Origin: Callorhinchus milii
Lineage: Eukaryota
Length of the DNA stretch: 64,000 nucleotides
Assembly: GCF_018977255.1 (NCBI RefSeq)
Contig: NW_024704742.1
Location: 85,376,001-85,440,000 of the forward strand
Direction: 5' to 3'
Shown here in pieces: positions 15,450 to 38,473 of the stretch (position 1 is the stretch's first letter; each line of letters begins with the position of its first letter). Below the pieces are notes generated by a model. The model was given only the letters and a program-made list of their open reading frames with translations, searched no databases and was not told the origin of the DNA. The translations under genes were made by a program, and so were the position numbers.

Positions 15450-16250
15450 GTATCCTCTCCCGCACCAGGCTCCGCTAACCAATTACTCCCATCCTTGCCC
15501 GGCTTCATTGGCTGCCCATCTCTCAGAGAATCGAGTTCAAAACTCTTGTTCTCATCTTCAAAGCCATCCAGCGTCTTGCTCCCCCCTACCTATAATATAA
15601 TAATAATCCTTGCATTTGATATAGCGCTTTTCATGTCTTCTAGATGTCTCAAAGCGCTTCACAGAATATGCTGTAAAGTGAATTGACTGTATATTTGTGG
15701 GTGAATATTGACTGTATAATTGTGGGCGAATCTCTGCGATTTCCTAACTCTATATCAGCCTGCCCACTCCTTCTGCTCAGCGGCCTGCTTCAGGTTCCCT
15801 GAACTTCCTGCCCCACTATTGCCGGTCGGGCATTCAGCATCTCTGCCCCCACTCTGGAACTCTATCCCGCAATCCTTCCGCCTCATCCCCTCACTTGCGT
15901 CCTTCGTCCTGTCTAAAGACCTTCGTCTTTGACCGTGCCTTCGGCCAACCTTCCACCCCCACCTCGAACCCCCCCACCCCCTCTGCCACCTCACCTGACC
16001 CCAACTCCCAGCTTGGGACCAAACCCCTTGATTGTCCAATGCCTGGGGCGTGAAGGGCACTGGAATAATAATAATCCTTGCATTTGCTACAGCTCTTTTC
16101 ACGTCTTCTAGACGTCTCGAATCGCTTCACAGAATATACTGTAAAGTGAATTGACTGTATATTTGTGGATGAAATGCAGTAGCCAAATTGCGCACAGCAG
16201 TGTCCCACAGACAGTCGTGGATTGAAGTGACCAATTTATTATTTTTTTTG
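15450..16250. mobile_element. L2 3' fragment (+) interleaved with minus-strand SINE pieces
   Basis: [27 protein letters not shown] tails at 15595-15730 and 16066-16250. Confidence 0.75.
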
Positions 16251-16447
16251 CTATACAGTGTAATTTGTTTTTGCACGGCCCAGCACTGTATCAGCCTCCA
16301 TCTGGTTCTGCATTGGCTTCCTGACTCCGTCACTCAACCACAGACAGTATTGTTGACAGCGATATATGGTGTGTGAATATGGGCATCTCCACCAGAAAGA
16401 GAGAGACTCGTCTTGACAGCAGTCGTCCCAGATTGACAGCGGTCCTC

Positions 16448-16989
16448 CCAGACTGACACCCCAATCCTCCAGACAGACACCACTCCAGACAGACATACAC
16501 ACCTCCTCCTCCCCCCCCCCCCCCCCCAGACAGACACCACTCCTCCAGACAGACACCACTCCTCCAGACAGACACCACTCCCCCAGACAGACACCACTCC
16601 TCCAGACAGACACCACTCCCCCAGACAGACACCTCCTCCCAGACAGACACCTCCTCCCAGACAGACACCACTCCTCCAGACAGACACCACTCCCCCAGAC
16701 AGACACCACTCCCCCAGACAGACACCACTCCTCCAGACAGACACCACTCCCCCAGACAGACACCTCCTCCCAGACAGCTACCATTCCCTCAAACACCACT
16801 CCTCCAGACAGACACCTCCTCCCAGACAGACACCTCCTCCCAGACAGACACCATTCCCTCAAACACCACTCCTCCAGACAGACACCACTTCTCCAGACAC
16901 CACTTCTACAGACACCACTCCCCCCCCAGACAGACACCACCACCTCAGACACCACTCTACCAGAGAGACAGACAGACAGACAGACAGAC
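16448..16989. repeat. Minisatellite of 18-19-bp units (CAGACAGACACCACTCCTC) upstream of NDUFB6
   Basis: More than 20 tandem units read directly. Confidence 0.95.
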
Positions 16990-17161
16990 CTACTGCAGTC
17001 GCTCCCCCAGTCAGTCCTCCAGTCAGCAGGGGTCGCTCTCGGGGTTGCGCGGTGTTGGTGCCGCTGGTTGTGGCAGTTGTCGGTGTGAGTGTCGGTGTCG
17101 GTGTGAGTGTCGGTGTGGGGGTCGGTGTCGGTGTGGGGGTCGGTGTGAGGGGACCGGGGAG

Positions 17162-17341
17162 ATGCCGTTGGGTTACACGGCTGATGAGAAGCTGCGCACT
17201 GAGCAGTTGTCGGGGCTGCGGCGGCGATGGCTGAAGGACCAGGAGCTGAGCCCCCGGGAGCCGGTGCTGCCCCCACAGCGGGGCCCGATCAGCAGCTTCT
17301 GGGACGGTTTCCTGAAGCCCCGCAGCCTGTGGAGGGTCTAC
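17162..17341 (+). CDS. NDUFB6: NDUFB6 coding exon 1
   Basis: ATG at 17162, 60 codons, donor TAC|gtgagt at 17342; CpG-rich. Confidence 0.95.
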
Positions 17342-20300
17342 GTGAGTCCGTGTGTCTGTGTGTGTGTGTGTCCCCGGGAGGTCATGTGTGTTATTGTAAA
17401 CCAAGCACTCTCAGTCCTGGCCATTGCAGGCGTTAGAGGTCATTACAGCCCATCAGAGGTCGTTACAGCCCATCAGGGGGGCGTTATAGCCCATCAGGGG
17501 GCGTTACAGCCCATCAGGGGGCGTTACAACAACAACAACAACAACAAGATTCCATTTATAAAGCGCCTTTCACGTCAGGAGGACGTCCCAAGGCGCTGCA
17601 CAGTTGGGTCATGACCCGAGCATTGGGGGGAAATGGTGAGGGTGAGGGGAGGGAAGGGAGGGAGCGAGGAGGGGGGAAATGGTCAGGGTGAGGGGAGGGA
17701 AGGGAGGGAGCGAGGAGGGGGGAAATGGTCAGGGGGAGGGAAGGGAGGGAGCGAGGAGGGGGGAAATGGTCAGGGTGAGGGGAGGGAGGGAGCGAGGAGG
17801 GGGAAGAGAGTCGAGAGGGGAGCTGAAGGCACGGTCAAAGAGAAAGGTTTTGAGACCGGCCTTGAAGGAGGAAAGGGAGGAAGCGGCGAAGGCACTGGGG
17901 GATGGAGTTCCAGAGCCTCGGGGCTGAGAGGCTGAAGGCCCGACCACCGATGGTAGGGCGGTTGGGGCGGGGGATGTGGAGCAGACCGGAGCCAGAGGAA
18001 CGGAGGGTACGGGCAGGTAGGTAGGGGGATAGTAGGTTGGAGAGGTAGGAGGGAGCGAGGCCGTGAATGGCCTTGTAGGTGAGGATGAGGATCTTGAAAT
18101 CAATCCTCTGGGGGATGGGGAGCCAGTGGAGGCGAGCGAGGGTGGGAGTGATGTGGTCCCGAAGCCTGGTGCGGGACAGTACACGAGCTGCAGAGTTCTG
18201 AATGACCTGCAGCTTGTGGAGGGAGGTGGCGGGAAGGCCGGCGAGGAGAGAGTTCCCATAGTCCAGCCTTGAGGTGACAAAGGCGTGGACCAGAGTTTCA
18301 GCAGCGTGAGGGGTGAGGTAGTGCCGTAGTCTGGCGATGTTCCGGAGGTGATGGAAGGCGGTGCCAGTTGTGGTGCGGATGTGAGGGAGAAAGGACAGCT
18401 CAGGGTCGAACAAAACGCCGAGGTTCCTGACTGCTTTGAGAGGTGGAGAGTGCAGCCTTGGATGCTGATGGTGTCAGCGCCTGAGGTGCGGAGGCGCTGA
18501 CGTGAGCCAATCAGGAGGGCCTCGGTTTTTCGCACGTTGAGCTGAAGAAAGTTGTCTCTCGTCCAGGACTCGATGTCGGACAGGCAGCTGTCAGGACATC
18601 GGTGGTCGTGGAGTTGAGAGTAGAGGAGGAAAGGTAGAGTTGGGTGTCATCCGCATACATGTGGAAGTTAACCCCATGTCTGCGGATGATGTCACCGAGG
18701 GGGAGCATATAGAGGGTGAAGAGGAGGGGACCGAGGACAGAGCCCTGAGGGACACCACATGAGACAGTGCGGGGGGTGGAGGAGAAGCCATTCGTCGAGA
18801 CAAAGTGAAGACGGTGAGAAAGGTACGACCTAAACCATTCAAGGACAGTGCCTTGAAGGTTGAGGTGGGAGGACAAGCGGTGGAGGAGGATAGCGTGGTC
18901 GACCGTATCGAATGCGGCCCATCAAGGGGTGTTACAGCCCATCAAAAGGTGTTACAGCCAATCAGGGGGCATTACAATATGACAGGGCATTACAGCACAC
19001 CAAGGGGCATTACCACATTACCATTACAGCACATCCAGGGGCATTACAGCACATCAGGGAGCATTACCATAAGACAAAGGGCATTACAGCTCACCGGGGG
19101 CTATTACAGCACATCAGGGGGCATTATAATAAGACAGAGGGCATTACAATAAGATAGAGGGTATTGCAGCCACTTTGCGGGCACTGTAATAGGTGAAAAG
19201 GAGAGGGATGGGTTTTTACCTTCAATTTCCTGTGATATTTCCACTATCGGCAGGCGGGCCTTCCGTCACTCTGCACCGCCCTCTGGAACTCCATCCCACA
19301 ATCCCTCCATCTCACTCCCTCCCTCTCTATCTTCAAGACCCACCTCAAGACCCTCCTCTTCGACCGTGCTTTTGATCTCCCTGCTTCCCCCCCCCCACCC
19401 TCCCCTGTCCCCCACCCCGACCTTCAGCTCGGGTCCGAAACACTGTCTGTCCAACGCCTTGGGACGTCCTCCTGATATGAAAGGCACTATATAAATGTAA
19501 TTTTGTTGTTGTTGATAGAAATTAATCACAATAACCCTTGAATTTGATATAACGCCGTATTACGCAGTCGAGATGTCTCAAAGCACTTCACAGAATATAC
19601 TGTAAAGTGGGTTGAGTGTGTATTTTTTTATGTGGGTGAAACTCAGCAGTGAGTTCACGCACAGCAATGTACCCACAAACTGCCATGGAGTGAGTGACCA
19701 ATTTTACTTCGGAGATTGTTGGCCAAGACACTAGGAGAAACTTCCATCTCTTTTCGCGTGGGATCTTTAACGTCCACCTGAACAGGCAGATGGGACCTCA
19801 AGTTTGATGTCTCACCCAAGGCACAGCACCAGCACTGCAATGAAGTGTCAGCTTAGATCATGTGATTCCAATTCCTGGCATTGGGCTTAAGCCCACAACC
19901 TACTGACTGAGACGCGAGAGTGCTACCAACTGAGCCAGGCTGACAAACAGCGCTGGGGAAGTGACTCGGAGCAGGGTATTTTATCCTGATGTTTCTTTTT
20001 CAGACTTACAAGGCTTGTCAAGCAGCTGGGAAGACTATCACTTGGTTACTAATTCCCGCCTGGCTTGCTCATTACTACCTGAAGTACCATATTGAGGTGA
20101 GTATCAAGACAGTGACTACAGAAGGAAACCTAAATAGACGAGAATTGGATGTGCTAAAATTTTACTTGCAATTTGGGGATCTATTCAATTTTTGACCTAT
20201 TGCAACAATATGTTGGGAAGAATACAACTAACCACTCTTAATTTCCATTCCACAGGCTAAGCCATTCGGCACAGTGGCAGTAAAGCCCAGGATATTCCCA

Positions 20301-22862
20301 GTAAGTTGTCATTAACATATTGCTTTTTCAAAGAGCAGGCACAGAAATAATAAGCCGAAGGGCTTTCTTCTGCACTCTAAAATTCTATGGTTCTGCACAG
20401 TCACCACAGTGTTCATATATTGCCAAAGTAGTGGCTGTTGCGCTGTTTGTGAATTCACATACCACTGAACAGTTTCAAATTGCACATTGAAATGTGGCTT
20501 TTTCTCATAAAATAGCACAGTCTATCTAAGTTCTCAGTGCAGTATCTATGTTTAGCCCTTTGGAGACTATTTGGACCATTAAAACTATTGAAGTTTAAAA
20601 CTTCCCATATGTCACTGTGGGTGCTCATATATTGCATCTTATGAAAACTAACTTTACCCGTTGCAGCTTCGTTTGCAACCAAAAGATCCAATGTGGAATG
20701 CAGATTGAAATACAGACAGACACACTTACTTATCCTTGAAAGGTTCGATTTTCACTTAGGCATCTTTATAATAATAATAATAAATGTATAATTTATAATC
20801 ACTGGGACGTCCTCCTAGCATGAAAGGCGATTTTAAAATGTAATTTTGTTGTTGCCGCAGCTTAGCTTCATCTGTGTTCTATATTTTGTTCCCACCACTA
20901 CATGTGTGCTCTGACACAGGATGCCACAGCTCCATGGTCAGCCGGCCCGGCCACCAGGTGCAACTGCACAATGCCACAGCTCCACTTGGACTCAACGGCC
21001 ACCAGGTGTAATTGCAGCAAAAAACGCAAAACTGAAATACATTTTAGGTCATACCTCACGAACGATAGGAAATACCCGAAAACAAACATGCCCACGTCAC
21101 TCCCAAGTGCAAGACCTTTTTGATGAGGTATAAATCGTGTCTCTACATCAATCAATTATTGAGATCCTCCTTGAAGCGCAGACAGACAGGCATTGTCGTT
21201 TTATTAGTACAGAAGATAGAAAACGAACAAACTGATGGTGGATCTTACTTCTATAGGATTCCATGAAACAAACATGATTCATGGGATCCTATAGAATCAT
21301 GAATAATTGTCACATCTGATGCAGACTAGTTGGTCTTAAAAGAAGCTTATATAAACTTTCAGTGGTTCAAATATAATCTTTTGCTCTTCTTTGGAGATGA
21401 TATTCTCTTCGTCAGCACCCCCACGCCTCAGGCACTGACAGCATCACCATCCATGGTTGCACACTCCACCTTACTAAGCCAGTCCGCAACCTTGGCATCT
21501 TGTTTGACCCTCAACTATTCTTTCTACCCCACATCCCTGCAATGTCCCGCTCTGCCTTCCCTGCCTCCCAGCTCCACCACTGTCTCACAACGCAGGCTGC
21601 CTAGACCCTCATACACACATTCATAACATCCAGGTTCAACTATGCAAACTCCCTGCTTGTCGGCCTCCCCAACTCGTCTCTCCATAGGCTGCAGATCATC
21701 CATCACACAGAGCATACAGTTGAAGATCCTGGTCCACACCTTCAAAGCCCTCCATGGTCTTGCTCCCCCTACCTCTGCGACCTCCAATCTACCCACTCCC
21801 TCAGCGAGCTCCGGCCTGCTTCATGTCTCCTGCCTCGCTCACCCCACCATTGGCGGACAAACCTTCAACCACTCTGCCCCCACCGACTGGAACTCCATCC
21901 CACAGTCCCTCCACCTCACTTGCCTCCTTCAAGACCTGTCTCAGCACCCTCCTCTTCGACCGTGCCTTCGATCACCCTCTTTTCCCCCCACCCCCCCAAC
22001 CTTCCCGATCCTGCCCCCAGCTCGAGTCCGAACCACTGATTGTCCAGTGCCTTGGGACGTCGTCCTGACGTGAAAGGTGCTAAACAACTGTAATTTTGTT
22101 GTTGTTGTTAATACCCATGGATATTGTTTTCTTAATACTGTGGAATTTAGAGTATTTTATTCCATTTGAGACCCTTTGTTCCCTTTGCTGTGCAAACATG
22201 GATAGGGAACAACAATAACACAAGGATTTATATACACAGGATAATGTTTTGAGGTGCTTCACAGTGACGGGCTTGGGGTTGGATGCTGAGCAAGAGAGCT
22301 TGGGGAGATGGTAGAGGCCATAAGCGTGGTCGAAAAATGAGGTTTTGAAACAGGACTTGAAGAGCTGGGTGTGGGGAGTGGTGGGGGGAAGTGAGAGGAG
22401 GGAAAGAGGGAGGGAGATCCAGAGGTTATGGGTGTAGAAAGCTCTGCCAATTAATAGGGGTTCCGATGATTGGGACGGGAATGTGTAGCAAGCCCACGTT
22501 TGGCAAGCAGAGAAATGGGGGAGGAGGAAATCAGAGAGATAGGGAGGTACCTGGGGATGAAGGGACACTAGTTCTGATGTGACAGTACCGATGGTGAAGG
22601 ATTTATTATTATTAATAATCTTTGCATTTGATATAGCGTCTTATCAAGTTATTGTCTCAAAAGTGCTTCACAGAATATTAAGTGGATTGACTGTGTATTT
22701 TGTGAATGAAATGTGGTAGTAGCAGCATATATTTACCCATTTATTAAAGGACTTGCCCCAGCTTTCATTTCCTTTGATTCATTGCTCCAGGGTGACACCA
22801 TCATGGAGACAGGAGAGGTTGTTCCAGCAATGCGAAAGGAAGCACATCAGGAACATCATTGA
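17162..22862 (+). CDS. NDUFB6: NADH:ubiquinone oxidoreductase subunit B6, spliced CDS join(17162..17341,20004..20096,20256..20300,22791..22862), 129 aa
   Basis: Spliced translation [129 protein letters not shown] carries NDUFB6 hallmarks (GYTx[25 protein letters not shown], HYYxKYH, RIFPGDTIxETGEV). All introns are GT-AG, phase 0. Confidence 0.97.
17436..19172. repeat. ~20-bp tandem array (GGGGCGTTACAGCCCATCAG) split by an L2 insertion
   Basis: Units at 17436-17527 resume at 18917-19172. Confidence 0.85.
17525..18912 (-). mobile_element. Young 5'-truncated L2 LINE in NDUFB6 intron 1
   Basis: [42 protein letters not shown] through the C-terminus with only frameshifts; ~46-bp 3'-UTR unit repeated about 4x (17625-17800); (caa)n tail. 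Confidence 0.95.
19250..19512 (+). mobile_element. L2 3' end
   Basis: IGRRAF...LWNSIP...KTLLFDRAF; gggacgtcctcctgatatgaaaggcact tail. Confidence 0.85.
19530..19945 (-). mobile_element. Deu-domain SINE
   Basis: Minus strand: tRNA head tggctcagttggtagcactctcg, Deu core caggtggacgttaaagatccca...gtgtcttggccaaca, shared SINE tail. Confidence 0.75.
20004..20096 (+). CDS. NDUFB6: NDUFB6 coding exon 2 (TM helix)
   Basis: tttctttttcag| acceptor, 31 codons, GAG|gtgagt donor. Confidence 0.95.
20256..20300 (+). CDS. NDUFB6: NDUFB6 coding exon 3
   Basis: ttccacag| acceptor, [18 protein letters not shown]|gtaagt donor. Confidence 0.95.
20648..21216 (-). mobile_element. Non-autonomous Helitron-like element
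   Basis: 5' A|TCTTCTGTACTAATAAAA...(GTCT)n; 3' hairpin gttgca...tgcaac then gggtaaagTTAG|T; inserted between A and T with no TSD. Confidence 0.65.
21400..22110 (+). mobile_element. L2 3' fragment
   Basis: [36 protein letters not shown]2 tail. Confidence 0.85.
22791..22862 (+). CDS. NDUFB6: NDUFB6 coding exon 4
   Basis: attgctccag| acceptor, [23 protein letters not shown] then TGA; ATTAAA at 22951-22956. Confidence 0.95.
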   Translation, partial: GDTIMETGEVVPAMRKEAHQEHH

Positions 22863-24310
22863 TCAGAGGAAAAAGGCAGCAGCATTGAACTAAATGTCCG
22901 GCGGAAACTGCTGAAAAATTAACCTTGTAGAAAAATACATTTTATTTATCATTAAAACACGGATTTACTGGAATACAAAAGATTAATGTATTCTCATTTA
23001 TACACTTCACAGACCAACATTGACTGGTTGGATTCTCTCCTTCATCATCCATGCCCACCCCCCCACCCCAACTGTGTGCTGGATTCCTCGCCACACACTA
23101 TAATGGCGTCCCAGTCTCAGCTGGATGGTGGTAAGATTTCCAGGTGCCTGGCCTGTGAGTGGAGACAAGACAGTGATGCCTTAAGAGCTGACCTCCCAAA
23201 GTGTCCAAAGGACTACAAAAAATTTCCACACGGAAAAGAACTATTAAAGAGAAAGTACCAATTTTCATAAGAGAGGCCATGAATTTTTACAAATAGTTTT
23301 TAAACAGTTTATAAAAAGGTATAGGCCAGTATCCAACCCCGATCTCTAGGTTGATTACACAAGGTTTCCAGTCTGAGTTTGTGCTAAAACTACAAGTTGA
23401 TTAATTGGGACTTTTTTAAGAATGATCAAATTATACGGAATGCATTGGTATCTTGACAAAATGTGATCAGAAAATTGATCAAAATGTATGAATTTAGATT
23501 ACCATTTCTTCCTTTTAGGGTATTTCTAAAATGTTAGGTATTCAGAAAAAACCTTGACAGATCGAATTATGTCAAACTTTTGAGCTTGTGTATACAAAAT
23601 GACTCTTCATTTACATGTTAATTGTATACTTTAATTTGTTGGTAACAAAACAGAAGAAATAAGGAATTAAAGATTAACAGTAATTATATCAAAGAATGTA
23701 TATTTAACAACAACATCAGTTTGCATTTATATAGACTTGTCACATCGGGAGGACGTCCCGTTGGTTTGGAATTAAGAGAGGGGTGGAGAGCAAGGGGGGT
23801 GGGAGTGGGAAGATGACTGAAAACACAGTCAATGAATCAGGTCTTGAGATGCATCTAGAAGGAGGCAAGGGAGGGTGCAAGGCAGAGGGACTCCGGAATG
23901 GAGTTCCAGAGGGTGGGGCCAGAAAGACTAAAGGCCTGACCCTTGGGAATGTGGAGCAGGCCAGTGCTCACTGAGCAGAGGGAACCTTTAAATCCCCCAA
24001 CTTAATATGGCTCATTCACTCCAAGGCTGTTTGTGGGATATTGCTGTGTGCAAATTGTCCCTATTTTCACCAGATGTAGACATTCTTTCGAGAAGGATTT
24101 GTTGTCAGTCTTCAAGCACTTGATACATTCCACGAAAGTACTGAATATTAACTTGGTATGAAGATTTTTTAAAATCCTGTGATCATTCTGCTGTTTCCGA
24201 TTGCTGTGCAGATGTTTTCTTTGTTTCTCCCAATCCAAAGATAAAACACGCGATATTTAGTGTGTGTGTATCTCGCCATTTCTCAAGATTTGTCAATCTG
24301 TTAGAGAATG

Positions 24311-24439
24311 TTAATTGTCATTCAAAATCCTAGTCTGTACTGATGTGGGAACCTTCAGATTTTCCAGATACCACAAAGATGCGAGTCTGCATGCGTAAAC
24401 GACAAAGCCCCAGGAGAGGAGGACAATGGCCAGTAATAT
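24311..24439 (-). CDS. SMIM27: SMIM27 coding exon 2 (TM segment)
   Basis: 42 codons plus TAA; hydrophobic ILLAIVLLSWGFVVYA. Confidence 0.85.
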   Translation of the reverse strand: MLLAIVLLSWGFVVYACRLASLWYLENLKVPTSVQTRILNDN

Positions 24440-25923
24440 CTGTTCAGGAAACAAAGACACATCAAGGTAAATGATAGAACCAGTGAATAACTTCATCAAA
24501 GCCTGCTAACTGTACCTATAGTGTTACCCCTACTTTAATAATTGCAAATAGGCTGTCTTTTTTAATTATTACATTTTATCATACAGTGTGCCATGTGCGA
24601 CATTACACCTGTGTGGATCATTAATCAGACTATTTATGGGTAGCACATTGCCATTTCACTTCTGGCTTGAATCCAGACCTGACTGAAAAGTCTTCTCTGT
24701 CTGTCTCCTAACTAAAATAAAATTGTGTAACAATCTTTGTAGTTGCGGATCCACTGCTAAGAACTCCTTGACTGAAACTCTGCGGCTATTCTTCACTAAC
24801 TTTGTTTCACTTACAGCCCAGCTCCCTGATGAAGTCATGGCTCATCATCGGCACCAACTATTCGGAGGCTGGAAACAAACTGAGCAGCTGATCACAGGGC
24901 CAATCAGCAAAGCACCCAAACTCACCTCTGGCTTCCAGACAGGTAGCATTGCTGGGGACGCCTACTGCATTCAACTGCTAAGTAATTTATCTCTCAATCC
25001 AGGCTGCAGACTACATCACTCTGTCCAGTCAAGGAGTGTTAAACAGCTCACTGCGCGGCCTGTTATAGTAAGTACAATTTGCTAAGTACAGCCATAAAAA
25101 GACCTTTTAACTCAATTGCTGTCCAATGTCAGAAGGTATGATCATCAGCTAAACATTTTAAGCAACAATAACAGGAAAGAAAGAACTTTCATTTTTATAT
25201 TGTTTGAGTGCTTTGCAATTACTGTATTTAATAATAATGCTTGATATAATATTTGATATAATAATCCTTTTGCATTTGATATAGCGCTTTTCATGTCTTC
25301 TCGACGTCTCAGAGCGCTTCACAGAATAGACTGCAAAGTGAATTGACCGTATATTTGTGGGCGAAACGCGGCAGCCAATTGCGCGCAGCAGACATAGCGC
25401 CTTATCACGCCTTCGAGACGTCTCAAAGCTCTTCGCAGAATATATTGTAAAGTGGATTGAGCGCATATCGTGTAGGCAAATATGTTAACGATTTCACACA
25501 GCGCGATCCCACCACAGCGACGTCTGTCAGGACATCAGAAGAAACCCTCTACTCTTTTTTCCAATAGTCAGGCCATCTTTAACGTCCGCCAAAGGAAGTG
25601 GTCTCACCTCCTCCCGCAAAATGAGGTGCTCCCCCCCCTCCCTCCCCCCCCCAGCACCGCAGTCCCGCCTGCCTGCCTGCACAGGGGGAAGGTTAAAGAT
25701 AATGTGTCGCTCCCGGGGTCCCTGGAGAACGACCCCCCCAACCCCCAAAAATTGGGTCACTCAGTCCACGGCTGTTTGTGGGACACGGCTGTGCGCACAC
25801 TGTGCGGTAGGTTTTCCCGCAGGTGTGGCGGCGGCTGTGCTGCACGTGACTCCCGCTGCCTCCCCTCTGCCGCCCACTCACCAGACTGTACACGCGGTCC
25901 AGCGCGCGTCTGCTCACGTACAT
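24311..25923 (-). CDS. SMIM27: Small integral membrane protein 27 orthologue, complement(join(24311..24439,25882..25923)), 56 aa
   Basis: MYVSRRALDRVYSL|ILLAIVLLSWGFVVYACRLASLWYLENLKVPTSVQTRILNDN*. Resembles human SMIM27 as recalled (MKPVSRRTLDWIYSVLLLAIVLISWGCIIYA...). Canonical CTG|gtgagt donor and ttcctgaacag| acceptor; syntenic position head-to-head with TOPORS. Confidence 0.88.
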
Positions 25924-26500
25924 TATGTCGGTTCCATTCACTATGGCAACCGGACAGGACCGGCGGCACAACGGTCAGGGCGGCGGTCTTCCAGTATCCC
26001 GGCGGTCTTTGCGTGCCAGGCTTTCCCGTCCATTTCCAAGGCAACATAGAGGGGCGGGGCGAGCCGGGGAGGGGAGGGGCCATGGACCGGAACTGCATCA
26101 CTAAATTACGCCTTCCTGTATCCCAGAGGCTGCCGGGATTGCTGCAGCTGCTTGGCGGGCTGGTCCTCCAGTATCCCGGAGGGCAGTGCGGCGCCGTCAC
26201 CCACCGTGCCTGTGTGATGGTGTAAACAGCCTCACAGCGGCGCAGGCAGGGGCCGGCCTCAGGCTCAGGCCTCAGCCTCAGGCCTGTCACAGGGGCGTGT
26301 GGACACTGAGTCAGGCAGTCACGTAGTTCACCAGCCGGGACGAGGCTGCAGTTGGCCGGAGCGGCGGCAACTCTCTCTGGAGCGTGTGATGCGTGAAGTT
26401 GGCGGCCGAGCAGGTGCCGGAGTGAGCGGCCCCGGAGGCTGCAGGTGAGAGGCCCAGAGCCCAGGCAGAGGGCGGGGTCGGGTTGCAAACTCCGCTACAG
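25780..26500. promoter_or_regulatory. CpG-island bidirectional promoter for SMIM27/TOPORS
   Basis: Dense CpG and GC; GC box GGGGCGGGGC at 26051-26060; three ZNF143-like and two X-box-like motifs; candidate TOPORS first-exon donor CAG|gtgaga at 26445. Confidence 0.75.
25882..25923 (-). CDS. SMIM27: SMIM27 coding exon 1
   Basis: ATG (cat at 25921-25923), 14 codons, gtgagt donor. Confidence 0.85.
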
Positions 26501-26514
26501 CCACAGCTACAACA

Positions 26515-26822
26515 TCAGCATTTTTTGTTGGTCAGTCCGGTGTCTGCCACGTGCCGACACCCGTCACCATCCTGAACAGTACCCAACCCGAGCTGAGGTT
26601 TCCATGTGTCCCACCTACACATGGGAATCCCAGAGAGAGATTGTTGGAATGGGATGTGCGCTCTCTCCCTGGAGGGACACATCCTGTTTACCTAATTCCA
26701 GATAGTATTAGGCGCAGGTTGGCAAGAGCCAAGGCTTGGGGACCCGGAGTGTGCGTTGGGTACTGCTGGAGTCTAACCGGCTAAAGCCATTGCTTGCCAT
26801 TGATATCGCTGTCCGGCAAATT
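26515..26822 (-). mobile_element. 3'-UTR copy of the CCHC non-LTR family at the edge of the TOPORS CpG island
   Basis: Reverse complement of 5680-5957; A-rich tail; possible TSD acagct (26503-26508 and 26823-26828). Confidence 0.8.
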
Positions 26823-29579
26823 ACAGCTTCAGTACAACCATAGATGAGCCTTCAGTCACTGACTCAAACACACCCTGACAAGCTGATGAGCTCAGCGCAG
26901 TCAGCAGCGCTCTCACTTCTGAGTCGGAGGGATACCCCCCAGGTCGGGACTTCGAATCACACAGTATAGGCTCAGTCCAACAACCACCACCACAAACAAG
27001 CAACAAATTGCATTTGAGCTGGGGGTTGGATTCAAGAGGGGTGGACAGCAAGGTGGGTTGAGGAGAGCGGATGACTGAAGGCACAATCAAATCATGGTCA
27101 CGGTCTTGAGATGAGCCTTAAAGGAGGCAAGGGAGAGGGCAAGGTGAAGGGAATGTGGGATGGAGTTCCAGGTAGGCAGGATGTGTCACTTCAGGAGCCA
27201 GTCATCATATTATGTTGCGGTCAATGTTCTGATCCATGTGATATTAATCACGTAAGTGGCTAGAGCACCAAAATTGGAATTTGTGGCCTTCATGTGCTGG
27301 TTAGTCGGATACTGGCTTTTTAGAAAAATCAAAAAGCAGATACCCAGCTAACCTACAATAAATGTAGGCCGAACAGTGGAAGGGTCAAAAGTCCAATGCT
27401 GTGATCTCGGCTTTTCTGACTTCAACGCTGAGAAAATCACATGAACTACATTATCTAACGATGAACCTGCCCAGGTTCTCAGCTCCAGGGACCAAGTATC
27501 ACATAAACATTTAATAGATAAATGTGACTGAGCTCTTGAGTTGTACAACTACATCAATGCAGTAAATCGTGTGAAACACTTTGAGACTTTAACAAATTGA
27601 TAAGGATTGTTATATTTATTTAGGTTCATTACATGTATCGATCAAATAGAGTCTCTTGGTCCTAACCTCTCATTTGGTGAATACTCACTTTTATGTATGG
27701 GTGCTGAGAGATGCGGTGTCCGGTCTCCACCATATCTAGGTTTTTTCACACCACCTTGCAATGACGTTCTGGCTGCAGCATTGAGTAGTTTAATTATACC
27801 TAAGAAAGGAAAAACCTACAGAGAAACTTAAAACTGTCTCCAAGACAAGTTTTCAGAGACACCCACAAGACTTGACCAGAAAGTGTGGCTTCTTTGTTGA
27901 GTGATTTACGACAAGCTGGAAACTGTGATCCCCAGTCTCTTCACTTTAATATTGATAATGCTGGGAAGAGTTCAAAATACTGGAGTAAACGTCTTGAAAA
28001 AAAATCTTGAGATGAAGAAAAGTTCTCAATGTAAAAGGAAATTCCCTTAAAACAATTATTTTTTTCCCTTCCCTCCCGCTCCCTCCCTTCCCTCCCCTGC
28101 TCGGGTCCCGACCCAACTGTCCAGTGCCTTGGGATGTCCTCCAGACATGAAAGGCGCTCTATAAATGCAACCTTGTTGTTGTATTTTGTATCTACAGCAA
28201 GGATAATGTAGTCTTTCAAGGTCTGAACAACAATCCTCTCCATGAAGAGAGTGTTGCTTCAGACTGGCAGTCTTGTACACTGTGTGGCAATGTAAAAAGG
28301 TTGCATTTAATCTGAAGGTTACATTTTACACTGACATAACTTCCTATATGCTGCGTGCTATAAGCACCTTTTGTGTCACTTCCCATATGCTTGTGAACTG
28401 CAGAGGAAGAACTATTAATGCCATCTCCAATGCACTGTTGCCTTGCAACTCGCCAGAAGCCAGTGCCAGATGTTGCCGTACTTAACATAACCTGACTACG
28501 CTATGAAAAGATTTGGGCTAAATGGACCTTGTGTTATATTGGGGCGCGTAATACTTGCATCCTTCATCTTGATGAACACACAATTAGAAGAGGGGAAAGT
28601 TGGTTCAGATGCACCTGCATTATTATGGTGTTTGTAATGGATCTGTAATGTCCTGAGCTTTTAGTGTAACAGGTAGTGCAGATGGATCACATAACACCGG
28701 AGGCAGCAACAACAACAACGTGCATTTATATTGTGCCTTTCATACGAGGTAGGAGCCAAGGAGAGGGAGGTGACCATAGGCGCGGTCAAAGAGGAAGGTC
28801 TTCTGGTGTGCGCTGAAGAAGGGCAAGGCAGCGGGAATAAGGGAGGAAGTCCTGGAGTTTTGGGGTATAGTGACTGATGATGGAGCAGGGTGGGGTGGGT
28901 GCACATTCATGATCCCAGGACAGGGATCCAAAGACAGCAGGGCTTGAAAAATATTGTCAGCTAGTCATGGCCAACTGGAAGTTAAGCAGCAAGAGGCAAC
29001 ATCTCCTTTGCTGCTTCCAAGGCCGTTGTGACCAGGAGCGCAGAGGAAATTACCCTTTGAGTCAATTGCTGGTGCCTTTGGTAGGTACATCGTCCTTCAC
29101 TTCATAGGACAAATGCAGCTTCAGAGAAACTGAACTTTCTGTGGCCTATAGAAAATCCGAGCTCAGGATCCCAAGGGATTTTAAGGGATATCAAGAAAAG
29201 GTAGGAAAATGGATTAGGGAGTTGCCATAAACTTAATGGCAGGGCAGACCTGATACATGGGATGGCATACTACTACTCCTGTTCAAAGTCACCACTAAGC
29301 AGCGGTTAGAATCACAGCACTAGCAACACAGGCCATTCGGTCCAGATAGTCAGTGCCAATGTTAATACTCCACCTGAGCCTTCACCAATTCTAATGCCCT
29401 TTTCCCTTCTCTCTCATCACTACATTGATTTCTCTTAAATACATTGATGGTTTTTAAATAGTTTATGGTGCACTAAATTACTGAAGTGATATACGTACAA
29501 CAACAACAACAACAACAAGATTCCATTTATAAAGCGCCTTTCACGTCAGGAGGACGTCCCAAGGCGCTGAACGTAGTTA

Positions 29580-29990
29580 ATTCCTGCATTTGATATAGGA
29601 CCTTATGATGTCAAAACGTCTCAAAGTGTTTCACAGGATTTATTGTATAGTGTAATTTATAGGCAAACCCAGCAACAGATTTGTACAAGCAATGTTCCAC
29701 AAACAGCCATAAGGTAATTACCCATTTTATTTATAAACGGATTTATTGGCCAGGATACTGGGAGAAATTTCCTTACCTTTTTGAATAGTGTCATGGGATC
29801 TTTAACGTCCACCTGAACAGGTAGTCGTGACCTTGGTTTAACATCTCAAAGTACCTACAACAATGCAATATACCCCCTTTGCTACATTGGAATGTCAACC
29901 TGGATTATGAGTTCAAAGTCCCAATGTGGGACTTGAGCCCACAACCTTCTGCCTCAGAGGCGAGAGTGCTACCAACTGAGCCAAGTTGAT
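29580..29990 (-). mobile_element. Deu-domain SINE (preceded by a young L2 tail at 29497-29570)
   Basis: catgggatctttaacgtccacctgaacag...gcgagagtgctaccaactgagcca. Confidence 0.75.
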
Positions 29991-30913
29991 ACCTGTGGTA
30001 GAATGGGCAGGTTTAGGAACGCCTCTTTCCAGATTCCCTTATTTAAATATTTCACCCAAAGTACAGATTGGCTTTCGTGCACTTCACTTGGACAAAGTGA
30101 CCTTGCCAATTTTCATCTGGGCCCGAGATCTCTTACCAATGTCTTCTCTCTGTGAGAATTTGCTGCTTGAGTTTCTCAGAGGAATGTACAGTATTCAGAA
30201 ACCAAATTGAAATCAGAATCTTGAAGCTTGATGGGTGGAGAGGTACCAAAAAGACCCTGAAACTAGCCACAACATTGTTCTATCAGGGTCAGTTTAGAAA
30301 CTTCCTCAGGCTGCTCAGAGGCTGTTTATCCTCTGCTGGCTTGACAAGGTGCCCAGGTGGGCTGTGAGTTTAAGAGAGTTTAAAACCGTGTCCTCTCCTG
30401 TGTCAGAAAAGGTATCAAGTGCTGCATTTTAAACTTGATTTAAAATATTTTGTAACGCACCATAAATTACATATTTCTTTTTACAGAATTATATCGTGGA
30501 TTGTGAATTTTGCAAACTGAATACAAGGTACAGTATTTTTTTGTTCTATGATGTTGTTGGTGTGAATTCAGTCTGAGAACCGCGGTTGTATTACAGTGCT
30601 TCAGAATTTTTCAAATTCAAATCCTATTTCCTGAAGGGCCGTGATGACTTCATATTTTGGCTCATTGTTCCTAATACCATACTCAATAACATTGCCGGGT
30701 GCTTTATTTCTGTTCAAAATTTGGGCTTCTCTGTCCTTGGGTAGGGAGGGTGGGCTGGGGAAGGAAGAAAATATGAAAAGCTTTACTGTGTGTAAGCTGA
30801 ATAAGTATCCGAGTCATAAGTGTAGAGCTTTCATTCTGCTTCTGTTGTGTGATCGGACAAAAAAGGTGAAGAATATCAGAGGAATATCAGCCACCTGTAT
30901 ATGACCAGAACTA

Positions 30914-31014
30914 CAGTGGAAGCCGCTTTAGCCGGACCCAGGTTAACCCTGGACGCGAGGTAAATCTGACAAAACGGTTGTCCCTAATGTGTCCAGCTTA
31001 AACGGCTTCCACTG
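30914..31014. mobile_element. 101-bp MITE with CAGTGGAAGCCG TIRs (pogo/Tigger-like)
   Basis: TA|cagtggaagccgctttagccggac ... gtccagcttaaacggcttccactg; a further end at 52955-52986. Confidence 0.7.
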
Positions 31015-32069
31015 TTATATAGTCTATGTCGCTGAAGTGAATCTAGACACCAGGTTTGTGCGATGAGAACATTCACGAACAGTGACACATCTTTGACATG
31101 TTCAGATATCCAACGATGTGAGTTCAAGAGTAGTCATCCTCATGACCTCTGCCCTCTTGCTCCGTACTGTATGCAAGTGAGATTTGTGAACCCAATGGCA
31201 AAGCTTTTTTTTTNGCCTTTGCTGGATGGAGTAGGTTGCTCCTGAGTAGTTTATCCTTTTAAAGAGTAAAAAAATGGTGTTGAGTCTGTTTTTAAAACTC
31301 AAAAGATTGCTGGAAAGAAGTTGAATACAAACATTGATGGTCTTTCATACATATTCTCACACAGACTCTGCATTGTGGAGGTTAGTGTCCCTCATATAAA
31401 GAGAAGGGAGTTTCTCCCGGTGGCCTGGCCAACAATCCCCCAAATAAAATTTGTCATTCACTCCATGACAATTTGTGGGACATTGCTAAGCTCAAATCGC
31501 CTGCCACTTTCGCCCACGAATGGCACAGTCACTGCAGTTAAATCCTACAAAGAGCTTTGGGAAATCCTTCTGACGCGAAACGAGCTATACCGAATGTAAG
31601 AACTATTATTATTTTATTATACAAGAGGTGTGCAAATGGTAAAATCATTGCATATATTGCTCAATGAGGTTTTGCATTGCTGTATGAATGCATGCATGCT
31701 GGGACAGAACAAGGACAGCAGCAAAACAGCCATAACTGGTTCAAGAGAAGTCTGAAGATGATAGGAGGCCTTGCTTTTGACCCTGGCATTTTCTCCCATT
31801 TGCTCGCTGCTGTCATGCTTTCTAGGACTGTATTTGCTATATACATTGCTGGCGTCCGTGACTGTCACAAGATTACATAATTTGTGACGAGAGCTCTGAA
31901 TGACCATTTTATTTGGGGAAAAGGTAGATGGGATCTCAGTTTAACGTTTCATCAGAATAATGACCACTCCGCTGTAGTGGAGGGTACTCTCGACTATATC
32001 AGCTTAATCCCACAACCTCTGACTTGGGGGTAACAGTGCTATCAACTGAGCCAGTCTGACACTCGGTTA

Positions 32070-32850
32070 CTGACAGAAGTCAAGGAGAATCTTGGTCTTG
32101 TCAACATTGAGTTGTAGAAAGTTAGCATTTCCAAGACTTGGTATCTGATAGTCAGTTGGATAGAACAGCAGTGGTCCTGGAGTCGAGGGTAGAGGCATAG
32201 AGATAGAGTTGAGTGGACCCTTGCCTCTGCAACTTGTTACCAAGGGGGAGCATATATAATACAAATTGACATTTATATAGCACCTTTCACATCGGGAGGA
32301 AATCCCAAGGCAGATAACAATCCTGGCTTGGCACCTGATCTGGGAGTGGGAGCCAAGGGTAGATTGAAGGGGAAAGATGACTGAAAGTGCAGTCCGAGAG
32401 GTAGATCTTTAGTCAGACTTTGAATGAAGTGAGGGAGGTGTGTGTGTGTGTATGTATGTGTGAGTATATGTGTGGTCCGTATAAGAGGAGATGCCTGAGG
32501 CATAGAGTCCTGAGGAACACGTGTTGACTTCGGGGGCGGGGGGGGGGGGGGGGCTGAGATGGGTAAAGGTCAAGCCAGAAAGGACAGGCATGGAAGGAGA
32601 AAATGAGGAGAAATGGTGGAGAAGGATACAGTAGTGGATGCTATCGAAGGCAACAGAGAGATTGAAGCGGCAAAGGAAGCTTTGGTGGCAGGAGGAGAGA
32701 ACATCATTGATCAGAGCAGTCTCGGTGCTGTGGGCAGATTGAAGGGGCTTGTAGAACGAATATTCGGAGAGGATCGAGTGAAGTGGGGAGGTGACGACTT
32801 GTTCCAGCTCATTGGAGAAGAAGCACAGGTAAAGTGTTCTCAGGAATTCC
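32070..32850 (-). mobile_element. Degenerate L2 fragments
   Basis: [26 protein letters not shown]. Confidence 0.7.
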
Positions 32851-33043
32851 CCTTGGAGAAAATCCCAGTATGGTAACATTAACCACCAAATGCTTATCGA
32901 AATGAGCAGCACAGTGCGACTTTTGTTGTTGTTATAAAGCTTTGTATCTAAATTTATATTCCTTTGCAGCAAATGTTGAGATTTCTGCAAAAATCTTTTA
33001 ATTTTTTTCTGTTGGTGGAGCACTATCACATTCCAATCACAGG

Positions 33044-33468
33044 TGTCAGCTTAGCTCAGTTGGTATCACTCTAACCTATGAGTTTCAAGGTTGAGGGTTC
33101 AAACCACAAATTGGGATTTGGAATTCATATAGTCTATACTGACACTCCAATCCAATGCTTGGGGTGTACTGCTATTGGAGGTGTCATCCTTCAGATGAGA
33201 CGTTAAACTGTGGTACTTTCTGCCAGGTTGATGTTAAAGATCCCATGGCACTTCTCAAAAAGAAAAGGGAGTTTCTCCCGGTGTCCTGGCCAAAAGTACC
33301 CCAAATAAAATTGGTCACTTACTTCATGGCTGCTTGTAGGACATTGCTGTGCGGCAATTAGCTACTGAGTTCAGACAACCACACCACTTTTCAGTACATC
33401 TTGCGAAGAGCTTTGTGATGTCTCAATGACATGATAAGGTGCTATATCAAATGCAAGGATCATTATTC
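33044..33468 (+). mobile_element. Deu-domain SINE
   Basis: agctcagttggtatcactct head; gatgagacgttaaac...gttaaagatcccatggcact...cccggtgtcctggcca; tail. Confidence 0.8.
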
Positions 33469-34064
33469 CTGACGATGAGTGGTGGTTGCTGACCTCCGCT
33501 CAATGTGGTACTTGAAAGGATTTGCAGACAGCAGGCGTTTAGCTGCATGTAGCTATGTGAGTAACTGGTGGGGAAATGGGGCTCAGAAGAACCAAATGTA
33601 AACAAAGTCCTTTGAGGAACCGCAATCTCCTACACATCGGAAAGTATTGAACGGTACCCTTGCATTGCTTCCTCAATCTTTCTACTGCCTCTGATACCAT
33701 CCACCACTCCATCCTTCATCATCTCCCCCTGCTCCACATGAGATTACTGAAAGTAAATCTGTCTGTGTATTCCAAACTGTACAGTAAGTGAGAGCATCAA
33801 TGTGAAATATTGGTGCTGTTAATGTCATTATAGTGTTAGGCATGTGTACATGTTCAGCTGATCTCTTTAATTTACTTTTTTAGACATAGTTCAACCATTC
33901 TAAGCTTGTTATGATGCACACTCCGTTTTCATATATCTGATAATGCAGCTATTTATCAGTATCAGTGCAGTTTGAGTACAACGGGGGGACTGCTGGGTAC
34001 TTTGATAACTCATATTAAAGCCAAATTAAATCTTATTCCTGATCTTATACACGTGGACACTACA

Positions 34065-34395
34065 GGCAACCTTAGGAAAGCTTCCTTACTCCACACATCT
34101 GTTTACCTAGGAGTAAGTAACAACCCGGGTGTTGGTCAATTGGCGGATCGCTTCTCAGGGGTAATAATTCCTCAAAAAAAATTGGTCACTCAATTCACAA
34201 CTGTTTGTGGCCCACTGCTGAGCGCAATCGGCTGCTGCGTTTTGCTAACAAAACACACAGTCAATTCACTTTACAATAAATTCAGTGAAGCGCTTTGAGA
34301 TGTCTCGAAGATGTGATAAGGCGCAATATCAAATGCAAGAATTATTATTATCTCAACGACATGATAAGGCGTTATATCAAATGCAAAGATTATTA
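34065..34395 (+). mobile_element. tRNA-derived SINE (headless, duplicated tail)
   Basis: ttccttactccacac...gcaagaattattatt plus a second tail. Confidence 0.8.
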
Positions 34396-34897: not shown

Positions 34898-35176
34898 CGG
34901 GTAGTGTGGTCCTAGCTGGATAAGCAGCGGGAAAGCTTACCAGATGCAATATCAATAGCAAGCTATGTGGTTTTAGTTGGTTGGACTCCAGCAGTACCCC
35001 AACGATCACTCTGGGGTCCACAAGTCCTCCCGAGGTGAAAGGCGCTTTACAAATGTAATTTTATATTGTATTGCATCCGAGTGTAGGTGGGATGCATGCA
35101 ATTCTCAGTTTGGTTTGGATCCTTTTGAGCATGGCGATGGGGTTTCGCGCATATCAGACACCCGGCTGATCAAAAA
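34898..35176 (+). mobile_element. 3'-UTR copy of the CCHC non-LTR family (with L2 tail insert), ~110 bp upstream of the TOPORS main exon
   Basis: ggtcctagctgga...gcaagctatgtggttttag...cacccggctgatcaaaaa. Confidence 0.75.
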
Positions 35177-35284: not shown

Positions 35285-38200
35285 ATGGCGTCTGCTGCGG
35301 AGGATTTGACGATGGATAGCCAATTTTCACCGAAAGCAGGAACGAGCAAAATTCCACAGGGTGTGCAGGCAGACGCATCACCGGATGCAAAATGTCCCAT
35401 CTGTCTGGACAGATTTGAGAACATGTCCTATATTGATCGCTGCTTTCACAAATTCTGCTTCCGCTGTATTCAGGAATGGTCCCGCAACAAAGCGGAATGC
35501 CCCCTGTGCAAGCAGCCCTTCAGTTCCATCTTCCACAGCGTCCGAACAGAAAGTGATTTTCAGGAATATGTACTTAAGGCAACAGAGAATGGTTCCTTTG
35601 GCAGTCCTGATGGGCAGAGGTTTAGATACAGGACAACACTGACCCGGGATCGGAGGATGACGTTTCAGTCTCGCAGGTCTCTGGTGACCTCATCGCTCCC
35701 TGATAACGGGGTCGTGTTTGAGGGACTTGGACGTCAATCTCGATCGCTCCAGGGACGCAGCTTACGGCGCATGATAGCGAGACTGGGAGCAAGGAGGAGA
35801 GCACAGTCCGAGGGCAGGTCAGTGAGGATCTTCCAAGAGCAGGAGATGGTCAACTTCAGACGGGAGCTGTACCGCTCGGGAGTGCGCGTCAGAAACGTGC
35901 AGGACGGTGGTCGCTACCGGGACATCTCGGCGGAGTTTTTCCGCCGGAATGCGGCCTGTCTTCACAGGCTGGTGCCCTGGCTAAAGCGCGAACTCTGCGT
36001 CTTGTTCGGCTCCCATGGTTCCGTGGTCAACATAGTGCAGCACATCATCATGTCTAACATAACCAGGTACGACCTGGAAAGCGAAGCTTTTCAAGAGGAC
36101 CTGAGGCCCTTTTTGCTCAGCCGCACTGACCATTTCTTGCACGAGTTCATAAGCTTTGCCCGCGCCCCGTTTAACATGGAAGCATACGACCAGAGAGCTA
36201 ATTATGACTGTCCAGCTCCCTCCTACGAGGAAGAAAGCGACTCCGATTTATCTGTCATAACTATATCGCCCGAGATGGAGAACATTCAGGAAGAAGATCG
36301 ACCAGTCCCTAATCCTTCAGAGATGGCTCTAAGCCTAAGTCAGACGGCCTGGGATGACGAAACTCCTGGCCCCTCCTATTCAATTGCAGAAACAGTGGAG
36401 CAGGGGGATTCCTCTCCCGCCGAGACGACTGTATCTATAGAAACTCCCCCACAGGCTGGCCCATCCTCACAGAGCATATTGATAAAGACTGACCCGGGCT
36501 CGAATGAAGAAAGCGCTAACCGTTCGGGTGACGACTGCTTGATAATGGGTTATGTGAAGCCTCTTGCTGAAAGGACACCCGAGTTGATTGAGCTAAGCTC
36601 AGATACTGAGGCTTCAGTTCCTGACACTGACAACAAGGTAGTCAAGCATCCTGTGCATTTACGGTTCCATAGCAGCCAGAGTAGCAGCAGCAACAGCAGC
36701 AACAAGATCAGCGGATTTTCCTCTTCCTCCACTCCCTCCTCTCCCTCCGCTAGATCTTCTGAGTCCAAAGAACAATGGAAAAGGAAAAAAAACAAGAGGA
36801 GAAAGCACGGTCGATCAAAAAGGGAGGAGCACCGAGGTCACAAGAAAAGCTGTCACTCTGGGGACAGTACTTCCTCCTCATGCAGGGACAGGACAAGGAT
36901 TTCGAGCCGGAGTAAAAGCACTTCCAAAGGTAGATCCGTGTTACGTTCGCATAGCAGAGACGGGCACGATTCCCAGAGGCACCAGCAGGCGAGGAGCAGA
37001 GATAGAGGTGCACTGACCCACCCTGAATCCAGCCGAGATGGACACAGGGACAAGGGTTGGAAAAGAAGGAGCAACCGAGATCGGTCTTCCTCACGGGACC
37101 ACGCAGGATCGGGGAGTAGTGATAGTCGGACGCACTGGAACTGGGAGCAGCGGAGGAGAAGGTGGAAGGAGCGAGACAGGAAGTCCTCTGGGAGAAGTCT
37201 GAAACAGCCACGGCACAGCGACAGCCTGGTCTACAGGCCCAGGGATAGATCGCGGTCTCGGAACAGGGGCTATGCTATTGCAAGGGAAGAAAGGAGGTCC
37301 AGGAGTAGAGAGAGGATGTACAGTTACATGCGAGAGTACCAGGAGAGGAGCCGAGGTTATTCCTACCAGTGGGAAAAGTACAGCTACCACAGCAGAACCA
37401 ATGATGGTCACGACTCTGTAACCAGGACCAGAGCTCACTATAGGAGAGGCTCTCCCAGTTCAGATTATAGGATTCAATCCAGCTCTGAGAGCACAAGCTT
37501 TAGAAGCCCAAGTAGCCACAGGGAAGATGTTTTCTACCATTACGGGAGTTATAGGTCAAGAAGCCCATCGTCTAGGTTTAGAGTCACTGGTAGAACTGAG
37601 AAAATGAGGCAAGAAAAACCTGGGGGGAAGAGAAAATATAAAACCCATTATTTAGAGAGTTCCTCTAATAAACGCAGTACTAACACAGCTTTGCAGGTTA
37701 CTAATGTATCCGAGGGACATGCGATACCCAGAAATGAGAGCGCTTCTCCTGGGCGTCTCTCACAATGCAGCAGCAGTCGTAAAAGTAGTCATCGTGAGCC
37801 ACATGCTGTGCCAGGCCACCAGGCCCCATTGAACAGGCTCAGAGAGAAGGACAAGAGGAGCTCGAGTGTGGAAATAGTGTACGAGGGAAAGGTCACGGAA
37901 GCCAGCAAACGGCACAAAAAGAGGAAGAAGCACAAAAAGAAACTGAAGAAGGACCAGAGCAGTGAGGAGTGCGCAGAACGGGCCCCCCGCTCCCCTATCA
38001 TCATAACCATCGACAGCCACAGCGACAGCGACGCGGTGGTAGTATCTAGTGCGCAATACGACACCAGCGATTTGGGGCCAGCCGACACTACCCTCAGGCC
38101 GACTCAGTGTGAAACGTGTGAGGACAAAAGCACAGCAGAGCCAGAAGAGGACAAGGATTCCCTGAACACAGCTGTCCCAGCCTCCAGTCAGATAAGCAGT

Positions 38201-38473
38201 GAGTCTTTGGACATCTGCAGTTTGTCCACAGACTCTGACTTTGGTCCTGAAAATCCAAGTGCGCAGGTTTGCAGCGACCAAGAGGATGTGGAGCCAGCTT
38301 CAGATACTGATACCCATCGGAGTATGGGAGTGCAGGAGCAAGAGCACGAGTCCCATTCAAATAGAACACCTCTTCCCAAATCATCTCCAGACAGACCACC
38401 TTTGATACTAAAAATCCCAAAGAGGTTCCTAAACAGGACCAACTTGTTTCACCAATCTGCTGGAAACGCATGA
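35285..38473 (+). CDS. TOPORS: E3 ubiquitin/SUMO ligase Topors (large terminal exon, 1062 aa from ATG 35285)
   Basis: C3HC4 RING CPICLDRF...CFHKFCFRC...CPLC; conserved GGRYRDISAEFFRRN.ACLHRLVPWLKREL; YVKPLAERTPEL.ELSSD; RS-rich region; EKPGGKRKYKT; SIM-like SVEIVYEG and PIIITIDS. Acceptor cttttcag|ATAATGGCG at 35281/35282. Confidence 0.97.
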   Translation: MASAAEDLTMDSQFSPKAGTSKIPQGVQADASPDAKCPICLDRFENMSYIDRCFHKFCFRCIQEWSRNKAECPLCKQPFSSIFHSVRTESDFQEYVLKATENGSFGSPDGQRFRYRTTLTRDRRMTFQSRRSLVTSSLPDNGVVFEGLGRQSRSLQGRSLRRMIARLGARRRAQSEGRSVRIFQEQEMVNFRRELYRSGVRVRNVQDGGRYRDISAEFFRRNAACLHRLVPWLKRELCVLFGSHGSVVNIVQHIIMSNITRYDLESEAFQEDLRPFLLSRTDHFLHEFISFARAPFNMEAYDQRANYDCPAPSYEEESDSDLSVITISPEMENIQEEDRPVPNPSEMALSLSQTAWDDETPGPSYSIAETVEQGDSSPAETTVSIETPPQAGPSSQSILIKTDPGSNEESANRSGDDCLIMGYVKPLAERTPELIELSSDTEASVPDTDNKVVKHPVHLRFHSSQSSSSNSSNKISGFSSSSTPSSPSARSSESKEQWKRKKNKRRKHGRSKREEHRGHKKSCHSGDSTSSSCRDRTRISSRSKSTSKGRSVLRSHSRDGHDSQRHQQARSRDRGALTHPESSRDGHRDKGWKRRSNRDRSSSRDHAGSGSSDSRTHWNWEQRRRRWKERDRKSSGRSLKQPRHSDSLVYRPRDRSRSRNRGYAIAREERRSRSRERMYSYMREYQERSRGYSYQWEKYSYHSRTNDGHDSVTRTRAHYRRGSPSSDYRIQSSSESTSFRSPSSHREDVFYHYGSYRSRSPSSRFRVTGRTEKMRQEKPGGKRKYKTHYLESSSNKRSTNTALQVTNVSEGHAIPRNESASPGRLSQCSSSRKSSHREPHAVPGHQAPLNRLREKDKRSSSVEIVYEGKVTEASKRHKKRKKHKKKLKKDQSSEECAERAPRSPIIITIDSHSDSDAVVVSSAQYDTSDLGPADTTLRPTQCETCEDKSTAEPEEDKDSLNTAVPASSQISSESLDICSLSTDSDFGPENPSAQVCSDQEDVEPASDTDTHRSMGVQEQEHESHSNRTPLPKSSPDRPPLILKIPKRFLNRTNLFHQSAGNA

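Follow-up and report, generated by a model that had tools for sequence, protein, structure and literature searches.

A two-exon SMIM27 orthologue between NDUFB6 and TOPORS in a cartilaginous fish

Does the interval between NDUFB6 and TOPORS in a cartilaginous fish hold a spliced gene for a membrane microprotein and, if so, is that gene SMIM27 and what might its product do? We addressed this question in a 64,000-nucleotide stretch of Callorhinchus milii DNA (the window), in which a first-pass annotation, made from the letters alone, had joined two small open reading frames into one protein and likened it to human SMIM27. The locus is almost certainly the cartilaginous-fish orthologue of SMIM27. 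It is an ordinary orthologue of a known vertebrate gene and no new kind of gene; what is new here is transcript support in a further lineage, the gene itself being already known, with a reported function, and named in one shark. Taken as a whole, the evidence is best explained, and we hold this with good confidence, by a spliced SMIM27 orthologue that encodes a single-helix membrane microprotein between NDUFB6 and TOPORS.

The spliced open reading frame has 56 codons on the minus strand, with exons at 25923-25882 and 24439-24311 joined in phase 0. The coding part of exon 1 (42 nt, 14 residues) begins with an ATG at 25923 and ends at the donor CTG/GTGAGT; that of exon 2 (129 nt) encodes 42 residues and a TAA stop codon, the stop lying at 24311. 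The intervening GT-AG intron is 1,442 nt long, and its 3′ end consists of a pyrimidine tract followed by CAG. Coordinates, strand, and the 56-residue protein were all identical to those of the first-pass annotation, which had predicted a two-exon, phase 0 splice with canonical sites.

Transcript evidence came from the contigs of four of 13 runs, which were compared with positions 22500-35700. None of the 13 runs is recorded as RNA, and the contigs give neither strand nor expression level; X1, X2, and X5 are RNA by guess, and X10, for which the kind is not recorded, has DNA-like contigs. The joint 24439/25882, with CT..AC ends, was found in one contig each of X1, X2, and X5, that is, in all three RNA-like runs, which belong to three studies, and the shorter side of these contigs measured 29, 119, and 102 letters, respectively. 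No contig in the DNA-like run X10 carried the joint, and two of its contigs (24030-25287 and 25768-26628) cross both SMIM27 exon edges unspliced. The junction that had been put forward earlier as a check on RNA was thus recovered. Transcript-supported contig pieces span 26000 to 23623 (Table 1). The leader length is a lower bound, as the transcription start cannot be read from contigs. We infer the 3′ end, where an ATTAAA at 23635-23630 is likely the SMIM27 polyadenylation signal; no poly(A) loose end was present at this 3′ end among those listed for these runs. A third coding exon for the divergent tail was considered and rejected: the contigs extend beyond exon 2 to the 3′ region, and L39 and P45 are in frame.

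Table 1. Coordinates of SMIM27 and neighbouring features, counted from the first letter of the window.
Feature	Position	Strand	Evidence or remark
SMIM27 5′ leader, at least 77 nt	25924..26000	-	X2 contig to 26000, X5 contig to 25983, neither with additional letters
Four-codon upstream open reading frame; last base of its TAA is the first base of the main ATG (TAATG)	25923..25937	-	ATG at 25937, other frame
Coding part of SMIM27 exon 1 (residues 1-14), with the basic N-terminus and the beginning of the long helix	25882..25923	-	Profile rank; X2 and X5 contigs
SMIM27 intron, phase 0, with repeat-element fragments (families D1, D6)	24440..25881	-	Joint in 3/3 RNA-like runs
Coding part of SMIM27 exon 2 (residues 15-56, then stop), with the LLSWG- and YA-bearing transmembrane helix and a short tail holding conserved L39 and P45	24311..24439	-	
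SMIM27 3′ untranslated region, about 690 nt, with repeat-element fragment	23623..24310	-	Contigs end at 23623 (X1), 23638 (X2), 23734 (X5)
Candidate shared promoter: G+C-rich stretch between the two first exons	25991..26180		GC 0.62-0.67, CpG o/e 0.64-0.76
Putative non-coding TOPORS first exon, left edge approximate	26075..26444	+	Donor CAG/GTGAG at 26445
TOPORS coding sequence, 1,062 residues, one exon, divergent neighbour	35285..38473	+	RING domain; best 120 matches TOPORS or unnamed
NDUFB6, convergent neighbour	17162-17341, 20004-20096, 20256-20300, 22791-22980	+	Pfam PF09782, E 3.2e-19; exons read by eye

A HMMER search with exon 2 against 1.84 billion representatives returned one match only, axolotl SMIM27 (E = 2e-4; 21 of 31 residues identical). 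When an alignment of axolotl SMIM27 and the two window exons was used for a profile search, 30 of 38 candidates passed, from amphibians, turtles, squamates, mammals, and one shark, and 28 of them are named SMIM27 or SMIM27-like, with 2 unnamed; the profile scored mainly exon 2, and the window exons themselves fed that search. A profile of 26 orthologues, which are the 30 relatives minus four with odd N-termini, scored the spliced product at 69.5 bits. None of 1,000 whole-sequence shuffles reached this value (maximum of 9.0), nor did any of 500 shuffles of exon 1 only (maximum of 58.6). Exon 2 alone obtained 47.0 bits with the family profile and, at 46.6 bits, was the best among 3,489 six-frame pieces of the window, and the exon 1 segment ranked first with the family N-terminal profile among 74,351 six-frame 12-mers of the window, with 32.2 versus 8.1 for the next. 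The axolotl match, the 28 named relatives, and the profile scores support the orthology to SMIM27 that had been proposed, with the significant similarity that a BLASTp or HMMER comparison had been expected to give.

Several searches were less informative. A word-index search with exon 2 alone gave no match, which is a limit of sensitivity, since the later matches share words with exon 2. Pfam had no family for exon 2 or for axolotl SMIM27, the ESM Atlas provided no usable match for SMIM27, and no structure was found among PDB sequences with a 29-row SMIM27 profile; a weak match to a VP3 chain in the PDB sequences (E = 0.25) was rejected as chance. The protein collection returned TOPORS as the window's own protein and did not return SMIM27, an absence that is expected for a short unannotated gene. 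One cartilaginous fish was present among the 30 SMIM27 matches versus ten named species for TOPORS, which suggests that SMIM27 is under-annotated and may also reflect a weak search.

The protein has one hydrophobic helix; Kyte-Doolittle hydropathy, averaged over 19 residues, peaks at 2.38 for residues 13-31. Twelve alignment columns do not vary among the 30 relatives, and the window protein agrees with 11 of them: nine fall within residues 16-30, and the other two are L39 and P45. These relatives were collected by shared five-residue words, so that conservation of the helix is overstated. The claims of a single transmembrane helix and of retained motifs, here LLSWG and YA, were upheld, and the claim of a divergent C-terminus stood in part: the tail is 6/22 identical to that of the shark protein, yet the conserved Leu and Pro are kept. 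Departures from the family comprise S35 (A in 30/30 relatives), V44 (Y or F in 30/30), and Y38 (Q or H in 28/30), together with a one-residue insertion before the Pro and a start that is one residue shorter, before VSRR. Near-invariance around the whole helix (S23, W24, G25, Y29, and A30, small and aromatic residues) would fit a helix packed in a membrane complex. The charges of the two flanks are similar (net +2 and +1), so that membrane orientation is not fixed by charge. An AlphaFold2 model of the shark relative consists of one helix (residues 6-43) broken near the conserved Pro, with a mean pLDDT of 77 and a pTM of 0.39.

Four database SMIM27 models with odd N-termini (P0122, P0129, P0143, and P0150) cease to match the family at residue 14/15 or immediately beside it, and one of them shows what looks like read-through of a pyrimidine tract. 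They probably carry wrong or alternative first exons. Because these models part from the family at the exon boundary, they would point to an exon break shared by SMIM27 relatives, in agreement with the earlier statement that the break is retained.

Across the family, identity to the window protein was 29/53 for the shark, 28/50 for a snake, and 31/50 for a caecilian protein (53 to 62%), and 25/53 each for a lemur and a hyena protein. The window protein resembles known SMIM27 in length (most relatives have 50-55 residues), in its basic N-terminus, in LLSWG, YA, L39, and P45, in the apparent break after the N-terminal segment, and in its place between NDUFB6 and TOPORS. It differs in the shorter start, the insertion, and the three substitutions given above, and in an overlapping upstream open reading frame (uORF). 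R10 and F26 also set it apart and are shared with the shark protein. The agreement with this protein, the SMIM27-like XP_078071445.1 of Mustelus asterias, amounts to 10/14 residues in exon 1 and 14/17 in residues 15-31, and the difference between the two is in the tail.

NDUFB6 and TOPORS flank SMIM27, and both are encoded on the other strand. The TOPORS coding exon starts 9.3 kb from SMIM27, and sharks and rays come first among the best 120 matches to its product. In a tree of TOPORS proteins (19, selected among the 120 listed matches), the window sequence joined the cartilaginous fishes (100/100) and branched off outside ten sharks and rays (99/98); its branch was flagged as long, and a chimaera is the likely source. 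Because TOPORS of the window branches outside all ten, SMIM27 of the window comes from a lineage other than that of the shark copy. On the other side, some 640 nt separate the end of NDUFB6 from the 3′ end of SMIM27; NDUFB6 has exon 3-4 loose ends in X1, X2, and X5, and X2 shows its poly(A) at 22980. Two mammal gene models (Fukomys and Camelus; P0078 and P0083) fuse NDUFB6 to TOPORS, and therefore the order and strand of these genes are the same in mammals; the fusions are most likely gene-prediction errors that skip SMIM27. SMIM27 and TOPORS occur on equally long contigs in six of the seven species common to both match lists (Ascaphus differs; the lengths agree in Mustelus asterias), and equal contig size shows the same chromosome only. 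Human SMIM27 presumably also lies between NDUFB6 and TOPORS, and the human gene name TOPORS-AS1 is consistent with a place antisense to TOPORS.

Further along the window, an exon at 57218-57607 on the plus strand has a weak match to DEAD-box helicases (E = 2.3e-4, below the Pfam cut-off); we take it to resemble RIG-I (DDX58), the gene after TOPORS in humans. Many short interspersed repeats are spread through the window, one of them within the SMIM27 3′ untranslated region, and fragments of a LINE-type reverse-transcriptase family were recognized by eye in the list of open reading frames (17835-18941, 48976-49812, 59030-61077, and 9622-10580). NDUFB6 intron 1 contains a tandem array of 20-nt units (19022-19170), and low-complexity repeats (16250-17160) lie directly upstream of NDUFB6 exon 1.

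The first-pass annotation placed SMIM27 head-to-head with TOPORS. That the two are neighbours on opposite strands was confirmed; the head-to-head arrangement holds only if the first exon of TOPORS ends at 26444, as several observations suggest. An X1 contig carries 367 letters upstream of the TOPORS coding exon, and of the runs compared only X1 shows depth both in the bin 26028-26468 and in TOPORS. A strong donor at 26445 follows Leu-Gln codons, and TOPORS models of Scyliorhinus begin with MLQ-IMAS, matching the end of this exon. The fit is imperfect: the corresponding joint is absent from the listed joints, the start of the X1 match lies one base later than this exon alone would give, and the depth of the bin is 24.4 where about 27.8 would be expected. 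No support was found for extra TOPORS exon candidates between 26446 and 35270. TOPORS would have a putative non-coding first exon, with the entire 1,062-residue frame in one exon (35282-38473), and, if this first exon is right, the 5′ ends of SMIM27 and TOPORS are under about 100 nt apart. From this layout, the two genes may share a putative two-way, G+C-rich promoter; their co-regulation, put forward in the first-pass annotation, stays a hypothesis. Three of the four window copies of the motif C[ACT]GTATCCC[AG]G (family D13) lie within 190 nt between the two first exons, at 25992, 26116, and 26169 on the plus strand.

The SMIM27 leader holds a four-codon uORF, in the part covered by the X2 and X5 contigs. 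Position -3 is T for its ATG and A for the main one. Because the context of the upstream ATG is weak, the overlapping uORF probably lowers, rather than blocks, SMIM27 translation, as far as the layout indicates. Its first three residues are similar to the MEP start of some mammal SMIM27 proteins, a similarity taken as chance; shark and amphibian starts differ.

As to function, the first-pass annotation described human SMIM27 as almost uncharacterised, a description that is out of date: a table row in a 2026 review assigns SMIM27 to the ciliary transition zone and the MKS complex (PMC13143143). With that one row as its basis, a ciliary role of SMIM27 in this fish appears likely, and the protein would belong to the MKS gate at the ciliary base as an accessory membrane subunit. 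If the review entry carries over, SMIM27 would be similar to the known MKS membrane subunits (TMEM231, TMEM216, TMEM107, and others) in being a small transition-zone membrane protein, and different from TMEM231, a two-pass protein, in having a single helix and about 55 residues. The review's entry probably goes back to a CRISPR screen of cilia by Sun et al. in Dev Cell in 2025. Literature on fish SMIM27 was not found in the one library searched.

Other readings of the locus would change this picture. It is unlikely that a true SMIM27 has its main job in this fish outside the cilium, whether as a general small subunit in another membrane complex or in regulating inflammatory signalling. Such a job would be in keeping with the two CRISPRi screens, for NF-kB and for monocyte differentiation, in both of which SMIM27 scored (PMC11145268), with the second-hand nature of the ciliary evidence, a review table (PMC13143143), and with a fish tail that differs at several family positions. 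However, the screening paper itself cautions that, at a two-way promoter, dCas9-KRAB can shut off both transcripts (PMC11145268), so that TOPORS could explain the screens, and the putative partner-binding helix differs very little between mammals and this fish. We consider it very doubtful that the gene is a weakened copy, spliced yet poorly translated through the overlapping uORF and under relaxed selection. The uORF stop does overlap the start codon, the protein is changed at S35, Y38, and V44 and has an insertion, and SMIM27, unlike TOPORS, was missing from the protein collection; against these points stand the open frame, the canonical splice sites, the 11 of 12 invariant columns, the identities to shark, snake, and caecilian proteins, the weak context of the upstream ATG relative to the main one, and the expectation that a short unannotated gene is missing from such a collection.

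The remaining alternative is that the TOPORS promoter gives rise, in the divergent direction, to a transcript that does not code for protein and acts as RNA, with the open reading frame incidental. Human SMIM27 was first classed as a lncRNA antisense to TOPORS, a history borne out in the literature, in which TOPORS-AS1 has been studied as a lncRNA binding hnRNPA2B1 (PMC8021562), and the SMIM27 transcript of the window starts beside the putative TOPORS exon 1. Yet both exons hold family-specific protein sequence in one frame over the joint, none of the exon 1 shuffles reached the score of the real product, and the named protein orthologues number 28 and range from a shark to mammals. A lncRNA would have no conserved coding frame, whereas the frame here is conserved over both exons, and this alternative is, on sequence grounds, largely refuted and scarcely credible; the earlier proposal of a protein-coding gene is supported by the same observations. 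The preferred reading thus remains a coding SMIM27 orthologue.

The proximity of the two genes also raises a medical question. If SMIM27 and TOPORS, both linked to the cilium, had stayed head-to-head since the jawed-vertebrate ancestor through co-expression, part of the ciliopathy assigned to TOPORS might be SMIM27 disease, a reading that we regard as quite improbable. TMEM216 and TMEM231 are MKS-complex genes that cause the same syndromes as TOPORS p.Pro10Gln; TOPORS itself is found at the basal body, which counts against a role for SMIM27. The p.Pro10Gln change is a human oral-facial-digital VI/Joubert allele that lies on a shared homozygous stretch (PMC8361718). SMIM27, being next to TOPORS, must lie within this stretch. 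All 13 cartilaginous-fish TOPORS models lack the N-terminal extension in which human Pro10 lies, and the N-terminal extensions of amphibian and bird TOPORS differ from the mammal type. Among mammal-type extensions, 21 of 23 keep Pro10 (a sloth has Leu and a lemur Ser), and SMIM27 as the disease gene is improbable because of this conservation. Later functional work reportedly supports TOPORS as the cause of the p.Pro10Gln ciliopathy. Because of the tight linkage, SMIM27 and TOPORS may nevertheless be mistaken for each other in CRISPRi, lncRNA, and patient studies of this locus.

With a transcript-supported SMIM27 from a lineage outside sharks and rays, the gene, the two-exon structure, and the location between NDUFB6 and TOPORS can be traced to the jawed-vertebrate ancestor; the shark annotation had already implied most of this. 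The divergent fish sequence marks residues that appear indispensable (L16, V20, L22-G25, V27, Y29, A30, L39, and P45), and this list may be used for mutating the interface of SMIM27 with the MKS complex.
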